Source: Planctomycetia bacterium
GTDB taxonomy: Bacteria; Planctomycetota; Brocadiia; Brocadiales; Brocadiaceae
NCBI GenBank assembly: GCA_015075005.1
Contig: JABTVC010000002.1
Coordinates: 694,259-726,258, forward strand
DNA: 32,000 bases
Reading direction: 5' to 3'
Shown here: positions 4,604 through 30,978 of the stretch, piece by piece
Layout of the letters: every line of letters starts with the position of its first letter
Position numbering within the stretch: the stretch's first letter is position 1
Translations under genes and position numbers: made by a program
Notes under the pieces: generated by a model
The model's input: only the letters and a program-made list of their open reading frames with translations
Databases searched by the model: none
What the model was told of the DNA's origin: nothing

Positions 4604-5971
<1,368 letters not shown>

Positions 5972-6530: not shown

Positions 6531-7875
6531 TTGGGAGACCTACAAGCAATACCGAAATCGCAAAAGAGCGATGAGGAAAGAGTCCGAGACTTTCAGCGTA
6601 AACTATATCGAAAAGCCAAACAGGAAGAAGGATTTCGCTTTTATGTATTGTATGACAAGGTGAGAATGTTGCATTTTTGAGAGAGGCGCAAGCGTTGCAA
6701 AGCCAATGGAGGAAGCGCCAGGGCAGACGGATTACATTTGAAGATGTGGAGTCATACGGGGTGGAGAAAGCTTCTTGGAGAGATAATAGAGGAACTTGAA
6801 AACAAAACCTACGAACCACAGCCGGTACTGAGTGTACATACCTAAAACCAACGGTAAGACACGACCATTGGGAATCCCTGTGATAAAAGACAGGGTAGTG
6901 CAGATGAGTGTAAAGCTTGTAATAGAGCCGATATTCGAAGCAGACTTTGAAGATAGCTCCTATGATTCCGACCGAGGCGTTCAGCGGGCGATGCTGTGAA
7001 GAAAATCAAAGAAAACTGCGAGAAGGGAAAACAGAGGTATTTGATGCAGACCTTAGTTCTTATTTTGACACGATACCGCACAAGGAATTGTTACTGTTAA
7101 TAGGGATGAGGATAAACGACAAGAACGTACTGTACTTGATAAAAATGTGGTTAAAAAGCACCGGTGGTAGAGGAAAGCAAACCAGGTGGCGGGAGGAAAA
7201 ATAAGATAGGAACACCGCAGGAAGCGTAATATCACCATTATTAGCAAACATATATCTGCACATGCTCGACAAAGCAGTCAATAGAGAGAGATGGGGTTTT
7301 CTATAAGTATGGGATAACAATCATACGTTATGCGGATGATTGGGCATTGATGGCAAAGCGAATACCTCGTGAAGCATTAGACTATCTCAACAGGTTGTTA
7401 AAGAAGTTAAAGCTGAGTCTTAACGAGGATAAGAGTAAAATAGCAAAAGCTGAAGAAGAGAGCTTTGACTTTCTCGGACATACCATATCCTTCTCAGAAG
7501 ATTTGTTTGGTAGGAAACACAAGAAACACTGGAACATAGAACCAAGCAAGAAATCACAAAGAAGGTTAGGAAAAGATAGGAAACCACCTCAAGAGCAATG
7601 GGCATAAAGCGGCGGAAAAAGTAGCTAATGAATTGAATGCAATAACAATAGGATGGATAAATTACTTCACAACAGAGGGAGTAACGTATCCAAACAAGCG
7701 AAAAAGAGACCTACGATATTATCTTTTCAAGAGATTGACGAGATATTATAATAAGAGGAAAAGTCAGCGCAGGAGCAAGCTCTATAATCGAGGAGCGTTT
7801 AAGGAATTAGTCAATAGATATGGGCCAATAGACCCAACAAAATATGTTCCTGTCAGACAACCCGTGAAAGCTTAA
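6531..7875 (+). pseudogene. Group II intron-encoded reverse transcriptase/maturase, with multiple frameshifts and stops, no endonuclease domain
   Basis: AAAGGAGG (6515-6522) plus a TTG start. Pieces are spread over all three frames: FQRKLYRKAKQEEGFRFYVLYDKV; [45 protein letters not shown]; VFDADLSSYFDTIPHKELL..RINDKNVLYLIKMWLK; GTPQ..ISPLLANIYLH; IIRYADDWALM (YADD); SFDFLGH; and the X domain ITIGWINYF. Confidence 0.85.
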
Positions 7876-7888
7876 GAAGACTGTCGGA

Positions 7889-7919
7889 AAGCCGTGCGGG
7901 AAAATCGCATGCACGGTTT
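7889..7919 (+). ncRNA. Group II intron domain V-like hairpin
   Basis: aAGCcgtgc..gaaaa..gcacggttt. It has a 9-bp lower helix that starts with the AGC triad, a 3'-side bulge and an A-rich loop, 14 nt after the RT stop. The upper helix is shorter than canonical. Confidence 0.6.
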
Positions 7920-20523: not shown

Positions 20524-22013
20524 TTAACGGCGCCGTGATCCGCCGAGGATACTGCCCAGCACGCCACGTAATATCTGACGGCCAATCTGGCTGCCGACGG
20601 TACGGGCGGCCTGCCTGGCCACGGTTTCCGCCAGGCCCTGGCGTCGTTTTGTGCCCCACAGCAATTCTCCCAAGCGTCCTCCTCCTTCAGACTTTGTACC
20701 TGCCCGGGCTTGGCCAGACCGGGCCACGGAGGCGTCTCTTGATGTAGTCCTCCGGCTCAGGATCTCGTAAGCAGACTCGCGGTTTATGCGATAGTCGTAC
20801 TTGCAGCCTACCGGGCTGCGTGCCCGCACCGCTGAGCGTTCATCAGGCGTAATCGCCCCAATACGGCAGCGTGGCGGACAAATCAGGGTGCGCTCCACCG
20901 GCATTGGCACACCATTCTCCTGAAGGGTAGATACCAGGGCCTCGCCGATTCCGAGCTGGGAAATGACCCTGGCAACGTTGAGCCTGGGGTTGGTAACGAA
21001 GGTTTCCGCTGCGGTGCGCACCGCCTTTTGATCACGCGGGGTATAGGCGCGCAGCGCGTGCTGGATGCGGTTCCCAAGCTGTCCGAGGATATTGTTCGGT
21101 ACGTCGTCCGGGAACTGAGAGCAGAAGTACACGCCTACGCCCCTGGACCTGATAATCCGCACGACCTGTTCCACCCGCTGGCGCAGCACCGGCGGAGCGT
21201 CATCGAACAACAAGTGGGCCTCATCGAAGAAGAACACCAGCCTGGGCTTGTCGGGGTCTCCCACCTCGGGCAAGCTCTCGAACAGCTCCGACAGCAGCCA
21301 CAGCAGAAAGCTCGAATACAGACGTGGTTTCAGGATGAGTTGGTCGGCGGCAAGGATGTTAACAATGCCGCGGCCGCCGAGATCGGTGCGCAGAAGGTCG
21401 GCGAGTTCCAGCGCCGGCTCGCCAAACAAGGCCTCCCCTCCTTCCCGTTCCAGTGTCAACAGTGATCGCTGCACGGCAGCCACGGACTGTGTGCTTACCA
21501 GGCCGTACTGCGTTGATACCTCCTTGCGATTATCAGAGACGAACCCAGGAGGGCGCGCAGGTCGTCGAGGTCAAGCAGTAACAGGGCCTGGTCATCCGCC
21601 AGTTTAAAGGCGATCTCGAGCACGCCTGCCTGAGTGTCGTTGAGCTCAAGGATCCTGCTCAGCAGGGTCGGGCCAATTTCGCTGATCGTCGTACGTACCG
21701 GATGGCCTGCCTTGCCGTACAAGTCCCAGAACAACACCGGGCTGGCCTCGTGGGTGTAATCCCCGATGCCGATCTGCCCGGCGCGTTGTTGTATCTTCTC
21801 GCTGGTAGAACCGGCCAGCGCCAGGCCGGCGACATCACCCTTTACGTCGGCCATGAACACCGGCACGCCCAGACGTGAAAAGCCTTCCGCCAGCACGAGC
21901 AGTGAAATGGTCTTGCCGGTGCCGGTGGCGCCGGCGATCAGTCCATGGCGGTTACCGTACTTGGCGAGCAAGTGGACAGGCTGTTCACCCTTGCCGATGA
22001 GTATTTGATTCAC
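20524..22013 (-). pseudogene. DUF853/YjgR-type HerA-FtsK-like P-loop NTPase, with one frameshift near 21540-21553; a GC-rich foreign-looking gene
   Basis: AAGGAGG then 6 nt then GTG (reverse complement of 22011-22013). Motifs: [15 protein letters not shown] (Walker A), [30 protein letters not shown] (Walker B), and a C-terminal GSQIGRQILRGVLGSILGG tail. The N- and C-terminal halves join as ..[22 protein letters not shown].. only if one base is restored. Confidence 0.8.
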
Positions 22014-22436
22014 GTACAACCTCCTTATGGAAAAATGCAGTTGATGTTCCCGTAAGACAGCAAGGCGGAGTACACGTTCCTTCTTGTTCTGGCTCCAGTC
22101 GTCGCCCAACGTAGTATTTGGGTGATCGTATGTCTTCCATTATTCCTTGTCCATCCAATTCCACCATTCAATTTACCTGGATCATGCTCTTCATGGTTTG
22201 TGTAGTATAGTAACAAAATTACAGGTGCAATTTCAACCTTTGACCGAATGATATTTAAAAAGCATATGTTGCAATTTTTAAAAAGGAATAGGCCGAAATG
22301 TAATTGTTTGTAGCTTTTTATGTATCATGTTGTTATTGTAATAAAAACAGATCAGGGAAATGAAAAGGCAGGAAAAGCAGTATGATTATGTTTGTGGCGT
22401 TGGTCGCAAGATTAACTTAAGCGACGGTAAACATGT

Positions 22437-24910: not shown

Positions 24911-26005
24911 ATGGAAAATACTGATACGTTAACACCCATTTTAAATCAGGCATTAGATTGTGTAGGCAGGGGGATTATGATCCAGGACATAAACCGGCGG
25001 GTGGTATTCTTTAATCACGCCTGCGAAGAGATAACGAAATGGTCAAGGAAAGATATTATTGGAAAGGATTGTGGTGATGTCTTTGTATGTCATACTTCTA
25101 CGGGTATGTGTTTAACGGAAAAATTTTGCCCCGGTATGGAGGTTTTTCATGGTGGGCATTGTAAAGGTTCAAGGGAACTTCTGATCAGGCGGGGCGATGG
25201 GAGTGAATCCTGGGCAAAAATGAGTGTTTCTCCTATGAGAAATAGTGAAGGGATGACAACACATATCGTTTCAGTTATTGAGGATATGAGTGACGTGAAA
25301 AGATTTTCTGACGAGGTCACCAGGTCAAAGACCTTATCCACGCTAGGCGCATTTGCTGCAGAACTGGCGCATGAGGTTAAAAATCCTTTAAATGCAATGA
25401 ATATTCAAATGACGGTACTGGAGCGCGAAATACAAGATATACAAAAACTGAGCGGTAAGGCAAAAAAGGAATTGATTGAAATTGTTTCGCTGGTTCGGAA
25501 GGAACTTCACCGTTTGAGTGGGTTTGTTGAAGAATGTTTGCATTTTTCGAAAACGGGAGAACTCAACAAAAGCATTGTTGATGCGGGCGATGTCCTCAAC
25601 GAGATTGTTTCCCTTCTCCTGCCACAGGCACAATTGCAGGGTATCCAAATCGAACCGGACATAACGAATGGGCTACCCAAAGTGATGGTGGACAGGGATA
25701 AGATAAAGCAGACACTCCTGAATATCCTTATTAATGGTATCGAGGCAATGCCGGATGGGGGAAAATTACAAGTAAGTGCAAAACACATTGGACAGGAAAT
25801 ATGGATTTCCTGTCAGGATACCGGGACGGGCATACCGGATGAGATCAAAGATAAAATCTTCAACCTGTTTTATACCACCAAGGATGGGGGTACAGGGATA
25901 GGACTTTCCTTTGCACAAAACATTGTCCAGGCACATGGAGGCCTAATACGGTTAGAGCAAACCCACAAAGGTAGTAAATTTGTGATTGCGATTCCAATAC
26001 ATTAA
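24911..26005 (+). CDS. Cytoplasmic PAS sensor histidine kinase (NtrB-like)
   Basis: PAS domain (IMIQDINRRVVFFNHACEEITKWSRKDIIGKDC..), H-box ELAHEVKNPLNAM, N-box LLNILINGIEAM, G-boxes QDTGTGIPDE and GTGIGLS. No TM segment. Start chosen at ATG 24911; the track's ORF starts upstream at 24818. Confidence 0.88.
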   Translation: MENTDTLTPILNQALDCVGRGIMIQDINRRVVFFNHACEEITKWSRKDIIGKDCGDVFVCHTSTGMCLTEKFCPGMEVFHGGHCKGSRELLIRRGDGSESWAKMSVSPMRNSEGMTTHIVSVIEDMSDVKRFSDEVTRSKTLSTLGAFAAELAHEVKNPLNAMNIQMTVLEREIQDIQKLSGKAKKELIEIVSLVRKELHRLSGFVEECLHFSKTGELNKSIVDAGDVLNEIVSLLLPQAQLQGIQIEPDITNGLPKVMVDRDKIKQTLLNILINGIEAMPDGGKLQVSAKHIGQEIWISCQDTGTGIPDEIKDKIFNLFYTTKDGGTGIGLSFAQNIVQAHGGLIRLEQTHKGSKFVIAIPIH

Positions 26006-26095
26006 GTACGGACAAACAAGTATGTCCGTGCCACCCTTGTAACTTTGAAATTCCTGTACATTAAAACAGGAGGGGAGGCTTTTCAAACAACTTCT

Positions 26096-27442
26096 ATGGC
26101 AAAACCAAAATTATTACTCGTAGATGACGACAAAACTGCACTTGATGGACTGGTAAAGATATTGACACGTGACGGGTATCCTGTCACCGGTGTCTTGTCT
26201 GGCTATGAGGCCTTACATCTACTCTCCAGGAAAAGCTTTGACATCATTGTGACAGACATGAAGTTGCCCGGGATGGGGGGATTGTCCCTGGTCCGTGAAT
26301 TACGGAAGAAGGAAGAATCGGTGGCACTTGTGGTCATTACAGCCTATAGCTCCGTAAAAACCGCCGTGGAGGCTATAAAATGCGGGGCAGACGATTACCT
26401 GACGAAGCCGGTAAACACTGAAGAGTTAGTAATGGTATTGGAAAAGCTGTGGGAAAAACAGCAGTTAATTGTTCAAAACCGGCTATTAAAGGAGAAATTA
26501 AAGGAGAAATATAAATCTTCCGAACTGGTTGGGAGTACTCCACAGATGCATCGTATATTTAAAATGATCGAAGACGTTGCTCCCAGCATGGCATCAATCC
26601 TGATCCTGGGAGAAACGGGGACAGGAAAAGAACTCGTGGCCAATGCTATTCATTGCCAAAGTGATAGGGTGTGTATGCCTTTTGTGGCACTGCATTGTGC
26701 AGCCTTATCGGAAGGTGTGCTGGAAAGCGAGCTCTTTGGTCATGAAAAAGGGGCATTTACGGGGGCCGTACAGTTGAGGAAAGGGAGATTTGAACTGGCT
26801 GACGGCGGTACATTTTTTTTGGATGAAGTGGGTGAGATGAGCTTAAAGGTACAGGTTAAACTGCTTCGTGTTTTAGAAAAAGGTGAGTTTGAGCGTGTCG
26901 GCGGAGAAAAGACGATAAAGGTAGACGTAAGGCTGATTGCAGCAACCAACCGGGATCTTGAAAGAGAAGTTTCCGAGGGAAGATTCAGGGAAGATTTATT
27001 TTATCGCTTAAATGTGATAACGATCCATTTACCGCCGTTAAGGGAAAGGAGAGAGGACATCCCCCTTCTCTCAAACTTCTTTGTCATCAAATATGCAAAG
27101 AAGTATAAAAAGGAGATTGAAGGTTTTGCCCCTGCAGCAATCGGGGTGCTGTGCGCATATCACTGGCCAGGGAATGTAAGAGAACTGGAAAATGTCATTG
27201 AAAGGTCTATCGTGCTCTGTAAAAAAAGTGTGATTACCGTAGATTATTTACCAAAAAATATCGTTCCAAACAAGGAAGATATATCAACGATTAAAATCCC
27301 CCTGGGCACTTCGTTAAAAGAAGCCGAAAAAGAGATTATCCGGAAGACACTATCCATGACAAACGGGAGCAAAAGGGAAGCCGCGAAAATACTGGGGATA
27401 TCCAGCAGAAAGATTGAGTATAAAGTAAAAGAATGGGGTTAG
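26096..27442 (+). CDS. Sigma-54-dependent response regulator (NtrC family: REC, AAA+, Fis-type HTH)
   Basis: REC with LLVDDD and DIIVTDMKLPGMGG, Walker A GETGTGKE, sigma-54 contact loop ESELFGHEKGAFTGA, FFLDEVGE, RFREDLFYRLNV, C-terminal HTH GSKREAAKILGISSRKIEYKV. Start chosen at MAKPKLLLVDDD. Confidence 0.92.
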   Translation: MAKPKLLLVDDDKTALDGLVKILTRDGYPVTGVLSGYEALHLLSRKSFDIIVTDMKLPGMGGLSLVRELRKKEESVALVVITAYSSVKTAVEAIKCGADDYLTKPVNTEELVMVLEKLWEKQQLIVQNRLLKEKLKEKYKSSELVGSTPQMHRIFKMIEDVAPSMASILILGETGTGKELVANAIHCQSDRVCMPFVALHCAALSEGVLESELFGHEKGAFTGAVQLRKGRFELADGGTFFLDEVGEMSLKVQVKLLRVLEKGEFERVGGEKTIKVDVRLIAATNRDLEREVSEGRFREDLFYRLNVITIHLPPLRERREDIPLLSNFFVIKYAKKYKKEIEGFAPAAIGVLCAYHWPGNVRELENVIERSIVLCKKSVITVDYLPKNIVPNKEDISTIKIPLGTSLKEAEKEIIRKTLSMTNGSKREAAKILGISSRKIEYKVKEWG

Positions 27443-27622
27443 TAGCGAAATTTTTTCAAGCCTTTTTTAGCAGCCATATCTCAGTTCCGCAAATTTTTCG
27501 TTTAAAACGTATTTCCATCGAATCATTGTTGTAGCCTACCCCCCATCTGCCAAAACCATAAACAATTCCAATACATATCAGAATAAGCAGTTATAACTTT
27601 TTTGTGATTATTGGCTTCCGGT

Positions 27623-27638
27623 TGGCATCAAGTTTGTT
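27623..27638 (+). promoter_or_regulatory. Candidate sigma-54 (-24/-12) promoter
   Basis: TGGCAT-caagt-TTGTT against the consensus TGGCAC-N5-TTGCW, with correct spacing. The -12 GC reads GT. It lies about 80 nt upstream of ATG 27718 and directly downstream of the NtrC-type activator gene. Confidence 0.4.
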
Positions 27639-27717
27639 TTATAAGAGAATCAGTTGTGCTTCAAATATTTTAGATAAACTTTTTTTTAACGTTTTTTGAA
27701 GGAGGAGTAAAATAATT

Positions 27718-28371
27718 ATGTCGATTATGTCAGAAGCTTATATGAAGATGTTTCCGATGGAAGCAGAGAAGAAGCTCTCTGCTGGCAAGCGCAATCCTGT
27801 TTTGGACGTCCCTGAATTTAATAAGGCATGGAATCTCTACAGGGATACGAGTTTGGACATCATGAAGCGTTACGAGTACATGGCGCAGTGTGTAAACTTC
27901 ACAGATAAAGACACGGAGGCTATTAAGGAATCAAAGGATATTATCGTTGCAAACCTGAAGGCAATCCTTGATCACATCTATTATGAAAAACTCATAAATG
28001 ATCCATGGTTATCCAGATGGTTTAGAGGCGACGATGGTAAAATAGCCAAAGAATATGTTGATATCAGAAGGGCAAGGCAACAAAGGTTCCTTGTTAAGAT
28101 ATTGGAGTGTAAATGGGATGAAGAGTTCTGGAATTTTGTGCGCTGGGTAGGTGCTGTCCATGTGCCGATCTTTGGCTTTGAGGATCTTTATATACCTATA
28201 CGGTTGAATCTTGCTTTGTGGGGATACATACACCAATATCTCTTTAACCTCTTTGCCCAGGAATTAAAAAATGACCCGGAAAAACTACGCAGGATAACAA
28301 CTGCATGGACAAAACTTTTCTGGATAATCATAGACATGTATCACATTGACTATTTTGGCCCATGGATGTAA
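27718..28371 (+). CDS. Stand-alone protoglobin / globin-coupled-sensor-type globin domain protein (217 aa)
   Basis: The pattern matches the sensor-globin family: VNFTDKDTEAIKESKDIIVANLKAILDHIYYEKLINDPWLSRWF, ..ARQQRFLVKILECKWDEEFWNFVRWVGAVHVPI (candidate proximal His), then YIPIRLNLALWGYIHQYL. No output domain. Assigned from remembered family patterns, not from a search. Confidence 0.55.
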   Translation: MSIMSEAYMKMFPMEAEKKLSAGKRNPVLDVPEFNKAWNLYRDTSLDIMKRYEYMAQCVNFTDKDTEAIKESKDIIVANLKAILDHIYYEKLINDPWLSRWFRGDDGKIAKEYVDIRRARQQRFLVKILECKWDEEFWNFVRWVGAVHVPIFGFEDLYIPIRLNLALWGYIHQYLFNLFAQELKNDPEKLRRITTAWTKLFWIIIDMYHIDYFGPWM

Positions 28372-28443
28372 TAAAGCTACCTTCTTTAATAAAAGAAAAG
28401 TAAGGATGTTGTTTTAAACGCAGGTTGTTTTTTAGGCAGATGT

Positions 28444-28480
28444 CTATCCCCCCCGTTTGATGTAGATTCGTGGGGGGTAG
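28444..28480 (+). other. Intercistronic stem-loop (C7/G6 stem)
   Basis: cta(t)cccccc ... gggggg-tag with an ~18-nt loop, between the globin-like gene and the ferredoxin gene. No T-tract follows. Confidence 0.4.
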
Positions 28481-28504
28481 CATGCTGCGAAGGAAGTGAT
28501 ACCT

Positions 28505-28702
28505 ATGAAAAAACCCGTTGTCTTATTTGAGGAAAGTTGTGTTAAGTGTGCAATATGCACTGAAGAGGCTCCCGAGGTGTTTGTTTTTGTGGAAAAAATT
28601 GGACCACAGGTAAAGGAGGGTGTAGACATTGCCTCCCATAGTGAAAAGATAAAGAAGGTAGCGCAATTTTGTCCAATGGAGTGTATTAAATACCATTTGT
28701 GA
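28505..28702 (+). CDS. Small single-cluster ferredoxin ([4Fe-4S]/[3Fe-4S] type)
   Basis: 65 aa. CVKCAICTEEAPEVF (CxxCxxC) plus a distal CPMECI (CP). GAAGGAAG lies about 8 nt upstream of ATG 28505. Confidence 0.75.
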   Translation: MKKPVVLFEESCVKCAICTEEAPEVFVFVEKIGPQVKEGVDIASHSEKIKKVAQFCPMECIKYHL

Positions 28703-28738
28703 CCGCTATTGGATGAGTTTTTCTGCTAATTAAACTTC

Positions 28739-29218
28739 ATGACAAAGCCCAAGTTGTTACTGATAGAGGACGATAAAAACACCCTCGATGGATTAGTCAA
28801 GATATTGACGCGTGATGGATTTTCGGTTTCCGGCGTCATGTCAGGTTATGATGCCTTACATCTTCTCACCAGGAAAAAGTTCGATATCGTTGTAACGGAT
28901 ATGAAATTGCCTGGAATGGGCGGTTTAACCCTGATACAGGAAGTGAGAAAAATGGGGTTACCGATAGCAATCGTAGTTATTACTGCATATAGTTCTGAAA
29001 ATACGGCTGCTGAGGTTACAAAATATGGAGCAGACTACTTTCTGGCAAAACCGGTAAATATTGAGGAGCTGGAGTCGGTATTAGAAAAGTTGTGCGAAAA
29101 ACAAGCGTTGGCTGCACAGAATTTACTATTAAAGGAGAAGTTAAAGTGTGGCCTTAGTCCGCCAAGTACAACCGGGAATAGAAATAAAATTAATCAATGT
29201 GATGACGATACCCGTTGA
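28739..29218 (+). CDS. REC-only response regulator; a truncated paralog of the NtrC-type activator at 26096
   Basis: It aligns residue for residue with the N-terminal ~135 aa of the upstream activator (MTKPKLLLIEDDKNTLDGLVKILTRDG.. against MAKPKLLLVDDDKTALDGLVKILTRDG.., through ..LLKEKLK). It then diverges into an unrelated 25-aa tail, with no AAA+ or HTH domain. Confidence 0.8.
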   Translation: MTKPKLLLIEDDKNTLDGLVKILTRDGFSVSGVMSGYDALHLLTRKKFDIVVTDMKLPGMGGLTLIQEVRKMGLPIAIVVITAYSSENTAAEVTKYGADYFLAKPVNIEELESVLEKLCEKQALAAQNLLLKEKLKCGLSPPSTTGNRNKINQCDDDTR

Positions 29219-29704
29219 TATATATGTTAATTTTAGCAATGGTCGAATGTTTATTACTAACCGTAGTGTAAGTAATTTTTTATCTTGTTTCATCATATAT
29301 AGTTTTACCAAACGTTTTTGGCGAAGAGGCGAAGCAGCCGGTGTGCTGGAAGCCTGGCGAGGAAGAGCAGGGTCTGATTCGTGTGACAAACGGTGATGTC
29401 CTGTGAGAACGTGGAAAGGATGGCATATGGGAGTATCGCCTTTATGCCATAGATGGATACATTTGAAGATAAAACAGTTCTCTTGCGCCTGATGGCTCTT
29501 GGTGCCGACCATGTCTTTGCTATCCACCCACATGGCTATCATATGGAAGTAGTTGCATTGAACGGAAGGAAATTAAAGTCGGCGTATGAGAAAGACACCA
29601 TTTATATTGCCAGCGGTGAACGAATTGATGTGCTCGTAAGAATTCCTCACTTCAAGGTGTGGCGCTCTATTTCCGGAGAAGAGGGACAAACCGGACAGGA
29701 ATAA
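29148..29704 (+). pseudogene. Multicopper-oxidase / cupredoxin-like gene remnants spread over several frames
   Basis: VQPGIEIKLINV..., KPGEEEQGLIRVTNG, and especially VLLRLMALGADHVFAI..GYHMEVVALNGRKL..DTIYIASGERIDVLVRI follow the MCO domain-2 pattern (LRLRLLN....F.....VIA.DG......L..GER..VLV). No Cu-ligand domain 3 is present. The 3' end is cut off by pcm. Confidence 0.45.
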
Positions 29705-30486: not shown

Positions 30487-30978
30487 TCATTGAAACCACG
30501 AAGTGGATGCCTCTTTGGGATTAAATTTGGCGTGGCATTCATCACAACTGTTTACTACCTTGAAAAAGGCAGCCGTGGCCTTGTCTTTATTTTTTTCCTG
30601 GCAGGCGCCAATCAACTCCAGGGAACTCATATGGAATTTAACATCAAGGTTTATAAACTCTACCGGTAAGTCTTTTTTATTCGCACCTGTGAACACTACA
30701 GGACTCGAATTTTTCAGTTTTTTCGTATCCTGTTTAATTGCCTCCCAGTCCTGCTGGTTAATCGATGTTGACAAATGTTTTAACAACACCTTGATGTCTT
30801 TCATGTGCACGATAAAGCCCTGTTCGTTCTTGATAAATTCATGTTTCACCTCTGGTAGCATCATTTCAGTTTGCTTCTTCCCGGCAGAAACAACCTCCTT
30901 TTCCAACCTTCCTGCTTCCTTTTTGCCACAACCAGACATACATACAACTGCAATCACTGCAACAATTAATTTCTTCAT
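30487..30978 (-). CDS. Lipoprotein, class II (cytochrome c'-like) mono-heme c-type cytochrome
   Basis: Signal peptide plus lipobox (VIAVVCMSGC). A single CDECH heme-binding motif sits about 15 residues from the C-terminus, and the helical sequence is about 160 aa, as in class II cytochromes c. Confidence 0.6.
   Translation of the reverse strand: MKKLIVAVIAVVCMSGCGKKEAGRLEKEVVSAGKKQTEMMLPEVKHEFIKNEQGFIVHMKDIKVLLKHLSTSINQQDWEAIKQDTKKLKNSSPVVFTGANKKDLPVEFINLDVKFHMSSLELIGACQEKNKDKATAAFFKVVNSCDECHAKFNPKEASTSWFQ

Follow-up and report, generated by a model that had tools for sequence, protein, structure and literature searches.

A probable anammox-specific sigma-54 regulon at a protoglobin locus of Candidatus Brocadia

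Genes of the locus

The 32 kb window, that is, the whole stretch of 32,000 nucleotides that was analysed, originates from an anammox bacterium (Candidatus Brocadia). Its plus strand, on which all features described here lie, encodes a sensor kinase, a sigma-54 activator, a protoglobin, a ferredoxin and a receiver-only protein, with a promoter-like element upstream of the protoglobin gene. Pfam, motif and sequence checks confirmed all six of these elements, which the original prediction had listed. The gene at 24911-26005 encodes a soluble sensor histidine kinase with the domain order PAS-HisKA-HATPase_c (Pfam PAS_9/PAS, HisKA and HATPase_c), the start of which is a MENTD-type ATG in the orthologs. 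The kinase contains no membrane segment, and its PAS sensor, expected to be Cys-rich, carries a C-x5-CH-x11-CP motif (C54, C60-H61 and C73-P74) that is invariant in 12 orthologs, down to 41% identity. The nearest PDB match of this domain is the haem-PAS of DosP (E about 1e-5). The kinase scores below the NCBIfam cut-offs for the AtoS, NtrB and ZraS equivalogs (217 vs 646 for AtoS), and a homolog search returned no close kinase ortholog under the label Kuenenia stuttgartiensis. The gene at 26096-27442 encodes an NtrC-type sigma-54 enhancer-binding response regulator (REC, AAA+ and Fis-type HTH), with matches to Response_reg, Sigma54_activat (E 1e-71), AAA_lid_14 and HTH_8 in Pfam. The translation shows the GAFTGA loop as well as Walker A (GETGTGKE) and Walker B (FLDEVGE), in agreement with the intact activator foreseen. 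Its NCBIfam scores lie under the equivalog cut-offs for AtoC (486 vs 714), NtrC (443 vs 559), NorR (346 vs 476) and ZraR.

The 217-residue product of the gene at 27718-28371 is a single-domain protoglobin, matching Pfam Protoglobin PF11563 with E 3.5e-23 (82.8 bits, cut-off 25) and showing no second Pfam domain. Its best PDB match, both by sequence and by fold (Foldseek), is the protoglobin of Methanosarcina acetivorans, to whose proximal His120 the invariant His148 in WVGAVHVPI is aligned; Tyr88 occupies position B10, and the AlphaFold model has a pLDDT of 80. The earlier description of a protoglobin with a proximal His and without output domain therefore stands. The protein is 70-96% identical across anammox genera and forms a clade confined to anammox-lineage sequences. 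This clade is set apart by an N-terminal segment of ~45 residues, a YHIDYF..WM tail and two invariant cysteines, Cys58 and Cys131; the next relative among 1.84 billion representatives is 28% identical. The closest protoglobins outside the anammox lineage carry fused iron-sulfur domains, either Rieske or Fer4_19-CDGSH plus Rieske. These Rosetta-stone fusions back the suggested pairing of the globin with an electron carrier and fit a haem enzyme that would receive its electrons from the ferredoxin. Protoglobins belong to the sensor-globin lineage, which leaves room for a sensing role. A literature search on the anammox protoglobin yielded neither expression data nor publications.

The spacer that follows contains a G+C-rich hairpin (C7...G6) without T tract at 28445-28480. 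In the four Brocadia and Jettenia loci that were folded as RNA, the spacer forms a strong hairpin each time, with differing sequences, and a canonical terminator is found at the same position in Scalindua; the hairpin probably lowers read-through into the ferredoxin gene. The latter (28505-28702), always directly 3' of the protoglobin gene, encodes a 65-residue single-cluster ferredoxin that matches Fer4_13 (E 1.6e-8) and Fer4_15. Its four cysteines (CxxCxxC...CP), predicted to bind a [4Fe-4S] cluster, are kept in 13 orthologs, as anticipated for a ferredoxin.

At 28739-29218 lies the gene of a 159-residue paralog of the activator, consisting of REC plus linker. As had been noted by eye for the receiver, it closely resembles the corresponding part of the activator (71% identity over 136 residues of receiver plus linker), and Pfam detects neither an AAA+ nor an HTH domain in it. 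Asp10, Asp11, Asp53, Thr81 and Lys103 are retained; helix α1, on the face that kinases usually read in receivers, is conserved, and helix α4 has diverged. Kept acceptor residues and α1 together with a diverged α4 are compatible with the proposed role as a phosphate sink. The receiver-only proteins form a clade that is sister to the activator receivers of Brocadia and Jettenia and is old. In relatives the gene is always followed by an intact gene for an exported two-domain multicopper oxidase of 423-428 residues, with a signal peptide and an HCH...H...M copper motif visible in the sequence. Its best PDB sequence matches are 2zwn (E 1e-18) and 3g5w (2e-17), and its best NCBIfam match, the copper-resistance multicopper oxidase subfamily, scores 60 vs a cut-off of 479. 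The window has only a remnant of this gene at 29275-29665: tblastn with the Jettenia oxidase places residues 14-84 at 29275-29487 and residues 294-361 at 29462-29665, so that the gene has lost about 210 codons as well as its 3' end. The oxidase is dispensable in this genome.

Control element and its distribution

A predicted sigma-54 type -24/-12 element, TGGCATcaagtTTGTT (TGGCAT-caagt-TTGTT), is located at 27623-27638, 80 nt upstream of the protoglobin ATG. The pattern TGGCAY-N5-TTGYT has no other match in the 32 kb window, against a chance expectation of 0.17. The -12 dinucleotide of the element in Brocadia and Jettenia is GT, not the canonical GC. Ahead of the protoglobin gene, both its position and its sequence are conserved in all genera examined, among them Brocadia, Jettenia, Kuenenia and Scalindua, and in lake relatives, which strengthens the case originally made for the element. 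A search of the sequences covered by the analysis turned up no rpoN gene. Further upstream, two putative activator sites match a CGAAA-N3-TTTCG palindrome: site 1, CGAAATTTTTTCA, at 27446-27458 with one mismatch, beginning 4 nt past the activator stop codon, and site 2, CGCAAATTTTTCG, at 27488-27500, 42 bp from site 1 and about 135 bp before the -24 element. They are the only matches with at most one mismatch in the 32 kb, and such sites are present in all related loci. The composite has a narrow geometry, with sites 41-42 bp apart followed by 124-137 bp to the -24/-12 element; 250 kb of related loci contain 19 instances, and 20 shuffles none. From its sequence, the palindrome pair would be the enhancer for the activator.

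A scan with the strict composite pattern over 185,579 species genomes (596 Gb) gave 44 matches, of which 42 fell in assemblies of the anammox lineage and another on a contig that bears Scalindua-type genes. Brocadia, Jettenia, Loosdrechtia, Kuenenia and Scalindua all carry the composite ahead of the protoglobin gene, across four different gene neighbourhoods and also in genomes where the regulators are far away; the palindromes of the Kuenenia stuttgartiensis protoglobin gene are perfect. Brocadia, Jettenia, Wunengus, Loosdrechtia, Kuenenia-like and Scalindua genomes all have the kinase and activator genes directly in front of a composite. Brocadia, Jettenia, Loosdrechtia and groundwater relatives also share the gene order kinase-activator-protoglobin-ferredoxin-receiver, which is not conserved in Kuenenia or Scalindua. 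Hence the single coherent unit that had been proposed holds as far as the recurring order goes; it is incomplete in the window, where the oxidase of relatives is a remnant, and the regulon extends beyond the locus. The retention of -24/-12 element and palindrome pair even in Kuenenia and Scalindua, where the protoglobin gene stands alone, favours the proposal that the protoglobin is a regulated output.

The exported multicopper oxidase is a further target, and in at least 9 genomes a separate composite stands before the receiver and oxidase pair. In six Scalindua genomes a conserved element, TTGGTATGGACATTGCG, precedes an operon of rubrerythrin, glutamate dehydrogenase (GDH) and peroxiredoxin (×2), and Kuenenia-like and Scalinduaceae genomes have a haem-oxygenase-like di-iron operon as a target. 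Genes of an Mla transporter are also among the targets. The Mla lipid transporter with RuvC, the glutamate dehydrogenase and a glutamate-synthase-like protein fit an oxidant response less neatly.

Comparison with known regulatory systems

In NorR circuits a sigma-54 enhancer-binding protein turns on a globin and its electron supply upon a reactive gas, from repeated sites >100 bp upstream of a -24/-12 promoter; NorR itself works as a one-component sensor by means of a GAF domain with non-haem iron. The sigma-54 control of a globin, part of a wiring for which the original prediction knew no described regulon, has its precedent here, in NorR/FhpR with flavohaemoglobin. These NO-detoxification circuits of Proteobacteria, in which NorR (FhpR) and sigma-54 control Hmp/Fhp or NorVW, have been reviewed (PMC3820574). 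The anammox locus shares with them the sigma-54 activator, a globin with electron supply and repeated upstream sites, as far as its sequence tells. In contrast to NorR, the activator is of the REC type (346 vs 476 for the NorR model) and would be phosphorylated by a PAS kinase; the globin belongs to the protoglobins and not to the flavohaemoglobins, for which Foldseek gives E 0.4, and the proposed reductase is a separate 65-residue ferredoxin instead of a fused FAD domain. Single-domain protoglobins were known before as well, so the stand-alone globin is not a novelty in itself. The anammox proteins resemble those of M. acetivorans and Aeropyrum pernix (PDB 2veb, 3zjn and 7ute) in Pfam family, fold and possession of an N-terminal extension, and have the proximal His F8, Tyr B10 and single-domain architecture in common with them. 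However, they are only about 19-20% identical, and the N-terminal segment, Cys58/Cys131 and tail differ. No established physiological partner or regulator is known for these archaeal proteins, whereas a ferredoxin and a regulator are both implicated for the anammox protein.

The regulators are built like NtrB/NtrC, AtoS/AtoC and ZraS/ZraR, with a PAS-HisKA-HATPase kinase, a REC-AAA+(GAFTGA)-Fis-type HTH activator and paired upstream sites. They nevertheless fall below every equivalog cut-off, the PAS domain carries the Cys3-His motif, and the CGAAA-N3-TTTCG operator and its targets are both restricted to anammox lineages. NreB and FixL/DosP are PAS kinases or sensors that detect O2 with a PAS-bound Fe-S cluster or haem, and they share with the anammox kinase the cytoplasmic location of the PAS sensor and conserved Cys or His residues in its cofactor-binding helices. 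However, the C-x5-CH-x11-CP motif fits neither the four-Cys pattern of NreB nor, in the alignment with DosP, the place of the proximal His. Single-domain response regulators may act as phosphate sinks, e.g., CheY1 of Sinorhizobium meliloti. Similarly, the anammox receiver has no output domain and could drain the main regulator's kinase; unlike CheY1, it is paralogous to the receiver of the activator itself, is genetically linked with a multicopper oxidase and is encoded in the operon that the activator is proposed to switch on. The relatives' oxidase, of which the window keeps only a deleted remnant, resembles the two-domain multicopper oxidases 2zwn, a metagenomic laccase, and 3g5w of Nitrosomonas europaea.

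Proposed circuit and alternative explanations

In the circuit proposed here, the cytoplasmic kinase would sense redox stress, with O2, peroxide or NO as favoured signals, via its PAS domain with the invariant Cys3-His motif, and would phosphorylate the NtrC-type activator. The activator may then bind the two palindromes that start just past its own stop codon and act from ~135 bp upstream on the sigma-54 promoter at 27623-27638. The resulting transcript would encode the cytoplasmic haem protoglobin first and, past the hairpin and probably with less read-through, the [4Fe-4S] ferredoxin and the receiver-only paralog; in relatives it would extend to the exported oxidase deleted in the window. 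Protoglobin and ferredoxin may work together in the cytoplasm as haem enzyme and electron donor to consume a reactive gas or N-oxide, and the induced receiver-only protein may compete with the activator for phosphoryl groups of the same kinase, giving negative feedback.

The database labels of the regulators, NtrB/NR(II) or AtoC, and their best NCBIfam models, AtoS/AtoC and NtrC, would suit a regulon that reports nitrogen or carbon status, with the protoglobin as one of several metabolic outputs, and so would the glutamate dehydrogenase within the Scalindua rubrerythrin operon and a Kuenenia-like operon with a glutamate-synthase-like protein, RidA and a GDH-like protein. Yet every equivalog score (AtoS, AtoC, NtrC) is far under its cut-off, no glnA, glnB or amtB lies next to any composite, and the remaining targets are redox proteins; the PAS cofactor region, moreover, holds the invariant Cys3-His motif, a feature not known from NtrB. 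Such a status-reporting regulon is unlikely. Somewhat less likely still is that the protoglobin is no enzyme or scavenger but a stand-alone gas sensor, which would feed back on the two-component system by contacting either the kinase or the receiver-only protein. Its fold is common to protoglobins and globin-coupled sensor domains (Foldseek matches include AfGcHK, HemAT and BpeGReg), and its gene lies between signalling genes in Brocadia and Jettenia; but it is unlinked from any signalling gene in Kuenenia and Scalindua, and its position downstream of a regulated promoter marks it as an output. Further arguments against a sensor are its ferredoxin partner, the fusion of its nearest relatives to electron-transfer domains and not to transmitters, and a conservation about equal to that of AlaS (70-77% identity across genera).

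Cys and His are also typical Cu(I) ligands, and receiver and oxidase form the most frequent separate target unit. Together with the oxidase's best NCBIfam match this might indicate copper or metal homeostasis, in which the PAS domain would bind a metal such as Cu(I) and the multicopper oxidase would be a cuprous oxidase of the CueO or CopA kind. This is very improbable: the oxidase scores far below that subfamily's cut-off (60 vs 479), is closest by sequence to two-domain laccases and the N. europaea oxidase, and was lost in the window with the rest retained. No copper efflux or chaperone genes lie nearby, the universal target is the protoglobin, and in Scalindua peroxide-detoxifying genes are among the targets. 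As for the receiver-only gene, the identity that spans the linker up to the expected AAA+ start, the C-terminal tails that vary between genomes in length and sequence and the pseudogene next to it in the window could be read as signs of a functionless, decaying fragment of a duplicated activator. There is hardly any likelihood of this, because the receiver-only proteins are a single clade older than the Brocadia-Jettenia split, remain intact in >15 genomes with all phospho-acceptor residues kept, and are always paired with the oxidase, often behind their own enhancer/promoter copy.

The original interpretation is thus supported in part. The co-regulated genes point to oxidant handling, and the locus is quite probably the home of an anammox-specific sigma-54 regulon that senses and responds in the manner proposed. 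This regulon is previously undescribed, and its control element is essentially confined to anammox bacteria.

Gene inventory and the protoglobin

Six genes in one orientation lie on the plus strand at 24.9-29.7 kb of the window. They encode a soluble histidine kinase built of PAS, HisKA and HATPase_c domains (24911-26005), an activator of the NtrC type (26096-27442) comprising Response_reg, Sigma54_activat, AAA_lid_14 and HTH_8 domains, a 217-aa protoglobin (27718-28371), a 65-aa ferredoxin (28505-28702) and a 159-aa receiver-only protein (28739-29218), in which Pfam finds only Response_reg, followed by a multicopper oxidase remnant (29275-29665), recognized from mapped pieces of the protein of relatives. 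Pfam domains, translation and sequence comparison locate all six elements of the original prediction, i.e., kinase, activator, -24/-12-like element, globin, ferredoxin and receiver, where it had placed them.

The assignment of the 217-aa protein as a protoglobin is borne out by a match to Pfam PF11563 with 82.8 bits (cut-off 25; E 3.5e-23), which covers profile positions 3-146 of 158, and by the fold. The closest solved sequences are the protoglobins of M. acetivorans and A. pernix; the E-values, 2e-3 to 2e-2, are weak. An AlphaFold model derived from 16 orthologs (pLDDT 80.4) gives M. acetivorans protoglobin as the top Foldseek match in the PDB, with TM-scores of 0.71-0.77 (target-length normalised) and a probability of 1.00, followed by the globin domains of globin-coupled sensors. 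The histidine in the segment WVGAVHVPI, proposed as the proximal ligand, is His148; it aligns with His120 of M. acetivorans protoglobin and is invariant in all full-length anammox orthologs as well as in distant relatives. Tyr88 (B10) is almost invariant among the orthologs, which are 216-226 aa long. In the globin sequence no signal peptide is evident and Pfam detects no second domain, in agreement with the predicted lack of an output domain; as it is not fused to a transmitter, the protein stands outside the globin-coupled sensor class.

Close homologs of the globin are 70-93% identical, and every named one is from an anammox bacterium (Brocadia, Jettenia, Kuenenia, Scalindua and 'Avalokitesvara'). 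Among the 1.84 billion cluster representatives searched, the anammox globins form a single 50%-identity cluster; the nearest relative beyond it is 28% identical, and just 58 matches have an E-value <1e-3. The best non-anammox match is a 2207-aa protein (P0050) of the glaucophyte Cyanophora paradoxa with four tandem protoglobin domains. The window derives from a Candidatus Brocadia, and its globin is 96% identical to the counterpart in a Brocadia assembly. Comparison of Brocadia with a Kuenenia-like genome shows similar conservation of the globin and of alanyl-tRNA synthetase (74% and 75% identity, respectively), and only 61% identity for the kinase.

Control region and proposed regulon

The spacer between the activator and protoglobin genes measures 275 bp and contains the plus-strand element TGGCAT-caagt-TTGTT (27623-27638), the sole match to TGGCAY-N5-TTGYT in the 32-kb window (chance expectation 0.17). 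The predicted -24/-12-like element recurs in other genera, but in the window its -12 dinucleotide is GT instead of GC. Upstream of the globin gene, other Brocadia have TTGGCAT-N5-TTGTT, Jettenia has TTGGTAT-N5-TTGTT, Scalindua the canonical TGGCAT-N5-TTGCT, Kuenenia GGCACG-N4-TTGCT and a lake relative TGGCAC-N5-TTGCT; the canonical form GGCAC/T-N5-TTGC is present at the equivalent position in Kuenenia, Scalindua and lake relatives.

Comparison of the globin upstream regions across genomes revealed two copies of a 13-bp palindrome, CGAAA-N3-TTTCG. In the window these are located on the plus strand at 27446-27458 and 27488-27500, the first beginning 4 nt past the activator stop codon, and nowhere else in the 32 kb is the palindrome matched with fewer than two mismatches. 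Situated 135-177 bp upstream of the -24/-12 element, they are predicted upstream activator sites. Across loci this geometry varies remarkably little, with the two palindromes spaced 41-42 bp start to start and the second 124-137 bp ahead of the -24 element. The composite of both palindromes and the -24/-12 element occurs 19 times in 250 kb of related loci and 0 times in 20 shuffles. A palindrome-like match at 25477, inside the kinase gene, coincides with a conserved coding segment and was not counted as a site. A generic scan for sigma-70 promoters and terminators gave counts at shuffle level. The RpoN-box motif had no match in the 533 kb of window and related-locus sequence scanned, which represent portions of genomes, no Rfam family, including riboswitches, was found in the locus or the whole window, and the window contains no tRNA genes.

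Several Brocadia species, Jettenia, Loosdrechtia and groundwater relatives share the arrangement kinase-activator-globin-ferredoxin-receiver. The expected conservation of gene order holds in these lineages but does not extend to Kuenenia, Scalindua and a lake lineage. There the globin gene stands alone among unrelated neighbours, yet is preceded by the two palindromes and the -24/-12 element. That the control region is conserved across differing contexts provides the strongest support for the globin as an output of this regulator, as originally proposed. Homolog searches with the activator listed mainly close Brocadia and Jettenia relatives, and the matches listed for the kinase did not include a Kuenenia stuttgartiensis protein.

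The strict composite pattern was scanned over 185,579 bacterial and archaeal species, one genome each (596 Gb), and yielded 44 matching stretches. All except two belong to assemblies labelled as Brocadia, Jettenia, Kuenenia, Scalindua, Wunengus, Loosdrechtia, Brocadiaceae or Planctomycetota MAGs (42 of 44), and the Planctomycetota MAGs with the composite carry orthologs of the same regulon genes. One match is on a contig binned as Thermodesulfobacteriota, which is probably mis-binned because it bears Scalindua-type rubrerythrin, GDH and peroxiredoxin genes at 76-88% identity; the remaining one, in Yersinia, is probably due to chance. As the strict pattern misses diverged sites, the resulting regulon list is a lower bound.

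Targets behind the composite include the globin-ferredoxin-receiver-oxidase genes, with kinase and activator directly upstream where the locus reaches far enough, and, in the Kuenenia-type arrangement, the globin by itself. In at least nine genomes the receiver and multicopper oxidase genes have a composite of their own, the duplicated control region being shown in one Brocadia. In one Brocadia lineage (loci L005/L006, 9422-13273) a SNF2-family helicase (DUF3670) and a 329-aa protein are encoded between the ferredoxin and the receiver-oxidase pair, and the pair has its own duplicated enhancer and promoter. A further target encodes a di-iron protein resembling haem oxygenase; in Kuenenia-like genomes, genes for a glutamate-synthase-like protein and RidA come next, and this Kuenenia-like operon has kinase and activator directly upstream. 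Other targets are (RuvC)-MlaE-MlaF-MlaD-MlaC, in six anammox-lineage genomes (loci L031, L038, L040, L043, L049 and L059), and two small c-type cytochromes with a pentapeptide-repeat protein. In Scalindua the composite precedes the gene for a 453-aa protein and then those for kinase and activator, an arrangement that implies autoregulation. The 453-aa protein, which opens the kinase-activator operon at loci L035, L039, L044, L057 and L032, is conserved and has no Pfam match; at L057 a 75-aa Cys-rich ORF precedes its gene, with the composite upstream of both. Six Scalindua genomes use this palindrome pair for a second, divergent promoter as well: TTGGTATGGACATTGCG, about 134 bp off on the other side, precedes rubrerythrin-GDH-peroxiredoxin-peroxiredoxin genes.

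Proposed regulatory and redox partners of the globin

The activator shows the features of the NtrC class, as predicted: a receiver domain, an AAA+ domain in which GAFTGA and the Walker motifs can be read in translation, and a C-terminal Fis-type HTH. The PAS domain of the kinase contains an invariant C-x5-CH-x11-CP motif in a segment that aligns with the haem-binding region of DosP, and this motif would suit an Fe-S cluster or a haem. The favoured signal is O2, peroxide or nitrosative stress, because four kinds of targets consume or are built around oxygen species, i.e., rubrerythrin, the two peroxiredoxins, the O2-reducing-type copper oxidase and the di-iron oxygenase-like protein. The glutamate-related enzymes and the Mla genes sit awkwardly with such an oxidant-stress picture, and a regulon that reads nitrogen status instead keeps some weight. 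Against the latter, kinase and activator are well below the equivalog cut-offs for NtrBC, AtoSC and ZraSR; the NCBIfam scores of the activator are 443 versus 558.6 for NtrC, 486 versus 714 for AtoC, 426 versus 760 for ZraR and 346 versus 476 for NorR.

The receiver-only protein, estimated earlier to be about two-thirds identical to the receiver of the activator, is 71% identical to the activator's receiver and linker over 136 residues and has no output domain. Its phospho-acceptor pocket (D10, D11, D53, T81 and K103) is kept. Helix α1 (LDGLVKILTRDG), which in response regulators is the main site of kinase specificity, is identical to that of the activator; helix α4, at the output face, has diverged. 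Neighbour-joining groups the receiver-only proteins of Brocadia and Jettenia as one clade. Its sister group is the activator receivers of these two genera, and the Kuenenia-like and Scalindua activators branch off outside both, which argues for one old duplication. Recent truncation of a second activator gene is ruled out by the tree and by the conservation of the protein. Since the receiver-only gene lies inside the induced operon, its product, a candidate phosphate sink, may compete with the activator for phosphoryl groups and thereby exert negative feedback; the shared α1 sequence lends indirect support to phosphorylation by the same kinase.

The ferredoxin scores 35.5 bits with Fer4_13 (cut-off 24.5), and the four cysteines of its CxxCxxC...CP motif, noted in the original prediction, are conserved in orthologs and are predicted cluster ligands of the single-cluster [4Fe-4S] class. 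Its gene always follows the globin gene immediately and never accompanies the receiver-oxidase pair. Outside anammox bacteria, Protoglobin-Rieske fusions from Anaerolineae are among the nearest relatives of the globin, and one relative has the architecture Fer4_19-CDGSH-Protoglobin-Rieske. These fusions argue that this protoglobin branch receives electrons from an iron-sulfur partner, and so favour a catalytic role over one in sensing alone. In all Brocadia and Jettenia loci examined, the next feature after the globin gene is a G+C-rich hairpin, and in Scalindua it is a canonical terminator; more globin than downstream product is therefore probably made.

In relatives the receiver gene is followed by that of an exported two-domain multicopper oxidase of 423-428 aa; Jettenia and other Brocadia retain this gene intact. 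Among PDB sequences the enzyme matches a metagenomic two-domain laccase and a Nitrosomonas europaea oxidase best, and it shows the HCH motif that is typical of laccase-type oxidases. A NirK-type nitrite reductase was rejected: matches to nitrite reductases are weak (E about 1e-3), and the best ones are to two-domain oxidases of the laccase type. Two segments are left in the window, one for oxidase residues 14-84 (29275-29487) and one for residues 294-361 (29462-29665); an internal deletion has removed about 210 codons, the 3' end is gone, and the remnant abuts a convergent PCMT methyltransferase gene. By this comparison the window module is best read as a reduced form of an ancestral one that has lost the oxidase gene. 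In the ammonia oxidiser Nitrosococcus oceani, the locus tags of a protoglobin and the copper protein nitrosocyanin (Noc1089/Noc1090) are adjacent, and both genes respond in a comparison of energy-induced and starved cells (PMC3772326). This pairing is a loose parallel to that of globin and copper oxidase.

Several genes in the window are broken, which may reflect real decay or assembly errors. Glutamyl-tRNA synthetase (tRNA-synt_1c and anticodon-binding domain) is split into two ORFs (4637-5257 and 5303-5971), either by a frameshift or pseudogene formation in an essential gene or by an indel error in the assembly. Between gltX and ligT, at ~6900-7900, three short ORFs in different frames have motifs resembling those of group II intron reverse transcriptase/maturases (FDTIPH and GWINYF). 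The AT skew is unusually high here, and the stretch looks like a decayed intron; Rfam gave no group II intron match in the window. On the minus strand, at 20524-22109, an NTPase of the HerA_C/DUF853 type is split into two ORFs; the surrounding G+C content is 53-62%, versus about 44% in the remaining window, and the stretch is probably foreign DNA that has possibly been inactivated. The c-di-GMP turnover genes at 10-2487, which encode a GAF-PAS-GGDEF protein and, next, a separate EAL protein, are unconnected with the globin regulon. Finally, a 163-aa lipoprotein-like ORF on the minus strand (30487-30978) has a C-terminal CDECH haem-c motif and a weak match to cytochrome c' of 26.2 bits (cut-off 26.5).

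Relation to known circuits and implications

The nearest systems in logic are the NorR/FhpR-sigma-54-flavohaemoglobin circuits. Whereas NorR/FhpR is a GAF-containing one-component protein that controls a flavohaemoglobin, the module described here uses a PAS kinase and a REC-type activator, its globin is a protoglobin, and the reductase is a separate protein. Single-domain protoglobins are already known, so that the stand-alone architecture of the globin is not new. What is new is the anammox-restricted clade, the ferredoxin partner, the operator/promoter code, the embedded paralogous receiver and a regulon that is almost solely anammox. Our literature searches gave no account of any of these features, of transcriptional regulation in anammox bacteria, of this protoglobin or of the oxidase as an anammox defence, and a study of oxygen tolerance in anammox bacteria does not mention globins or multicopper oxidases.

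Protoglobins have so far been the subject of structural studies and of enzyme engineering, and to our knowledge their natural role is still open. Here a protoglobin is accompanied by a likely electron donor, a likely regulator and co-regulated oxidant-handling genes, which turns the question of its role into concrete experiments. Anammox bacteria are important both in the nitrogen cycle worldwide and in the treatment of wastewater. Oxygen inhibits them (PMC10156729). The near-exclusive occurrence of the operator/promoter code in this lineage makes members of the regulon predictable from genome sequence, and the regulon suggests marker transcripts for stress in reactors. We regard it as a tentative and rather improbable reading that globin and ferredoxin constitute a new type of haem enzyme that clears an intermediate of anammox metabolism (NO, hydroxylamine or hydrazine) or O2 from the cytoplasm, and that the kinase, with its Cys3-His PAS domain, and the activator represent a transcriptional switch responsive to gas or redox state, the first to be defined in anammox bacteria. 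If true, this would provide the first physiological role for protoglobins, and the twice-repeated operator CGAAA-N3-TTTCG would make a whole stress regulon readable from sequence.
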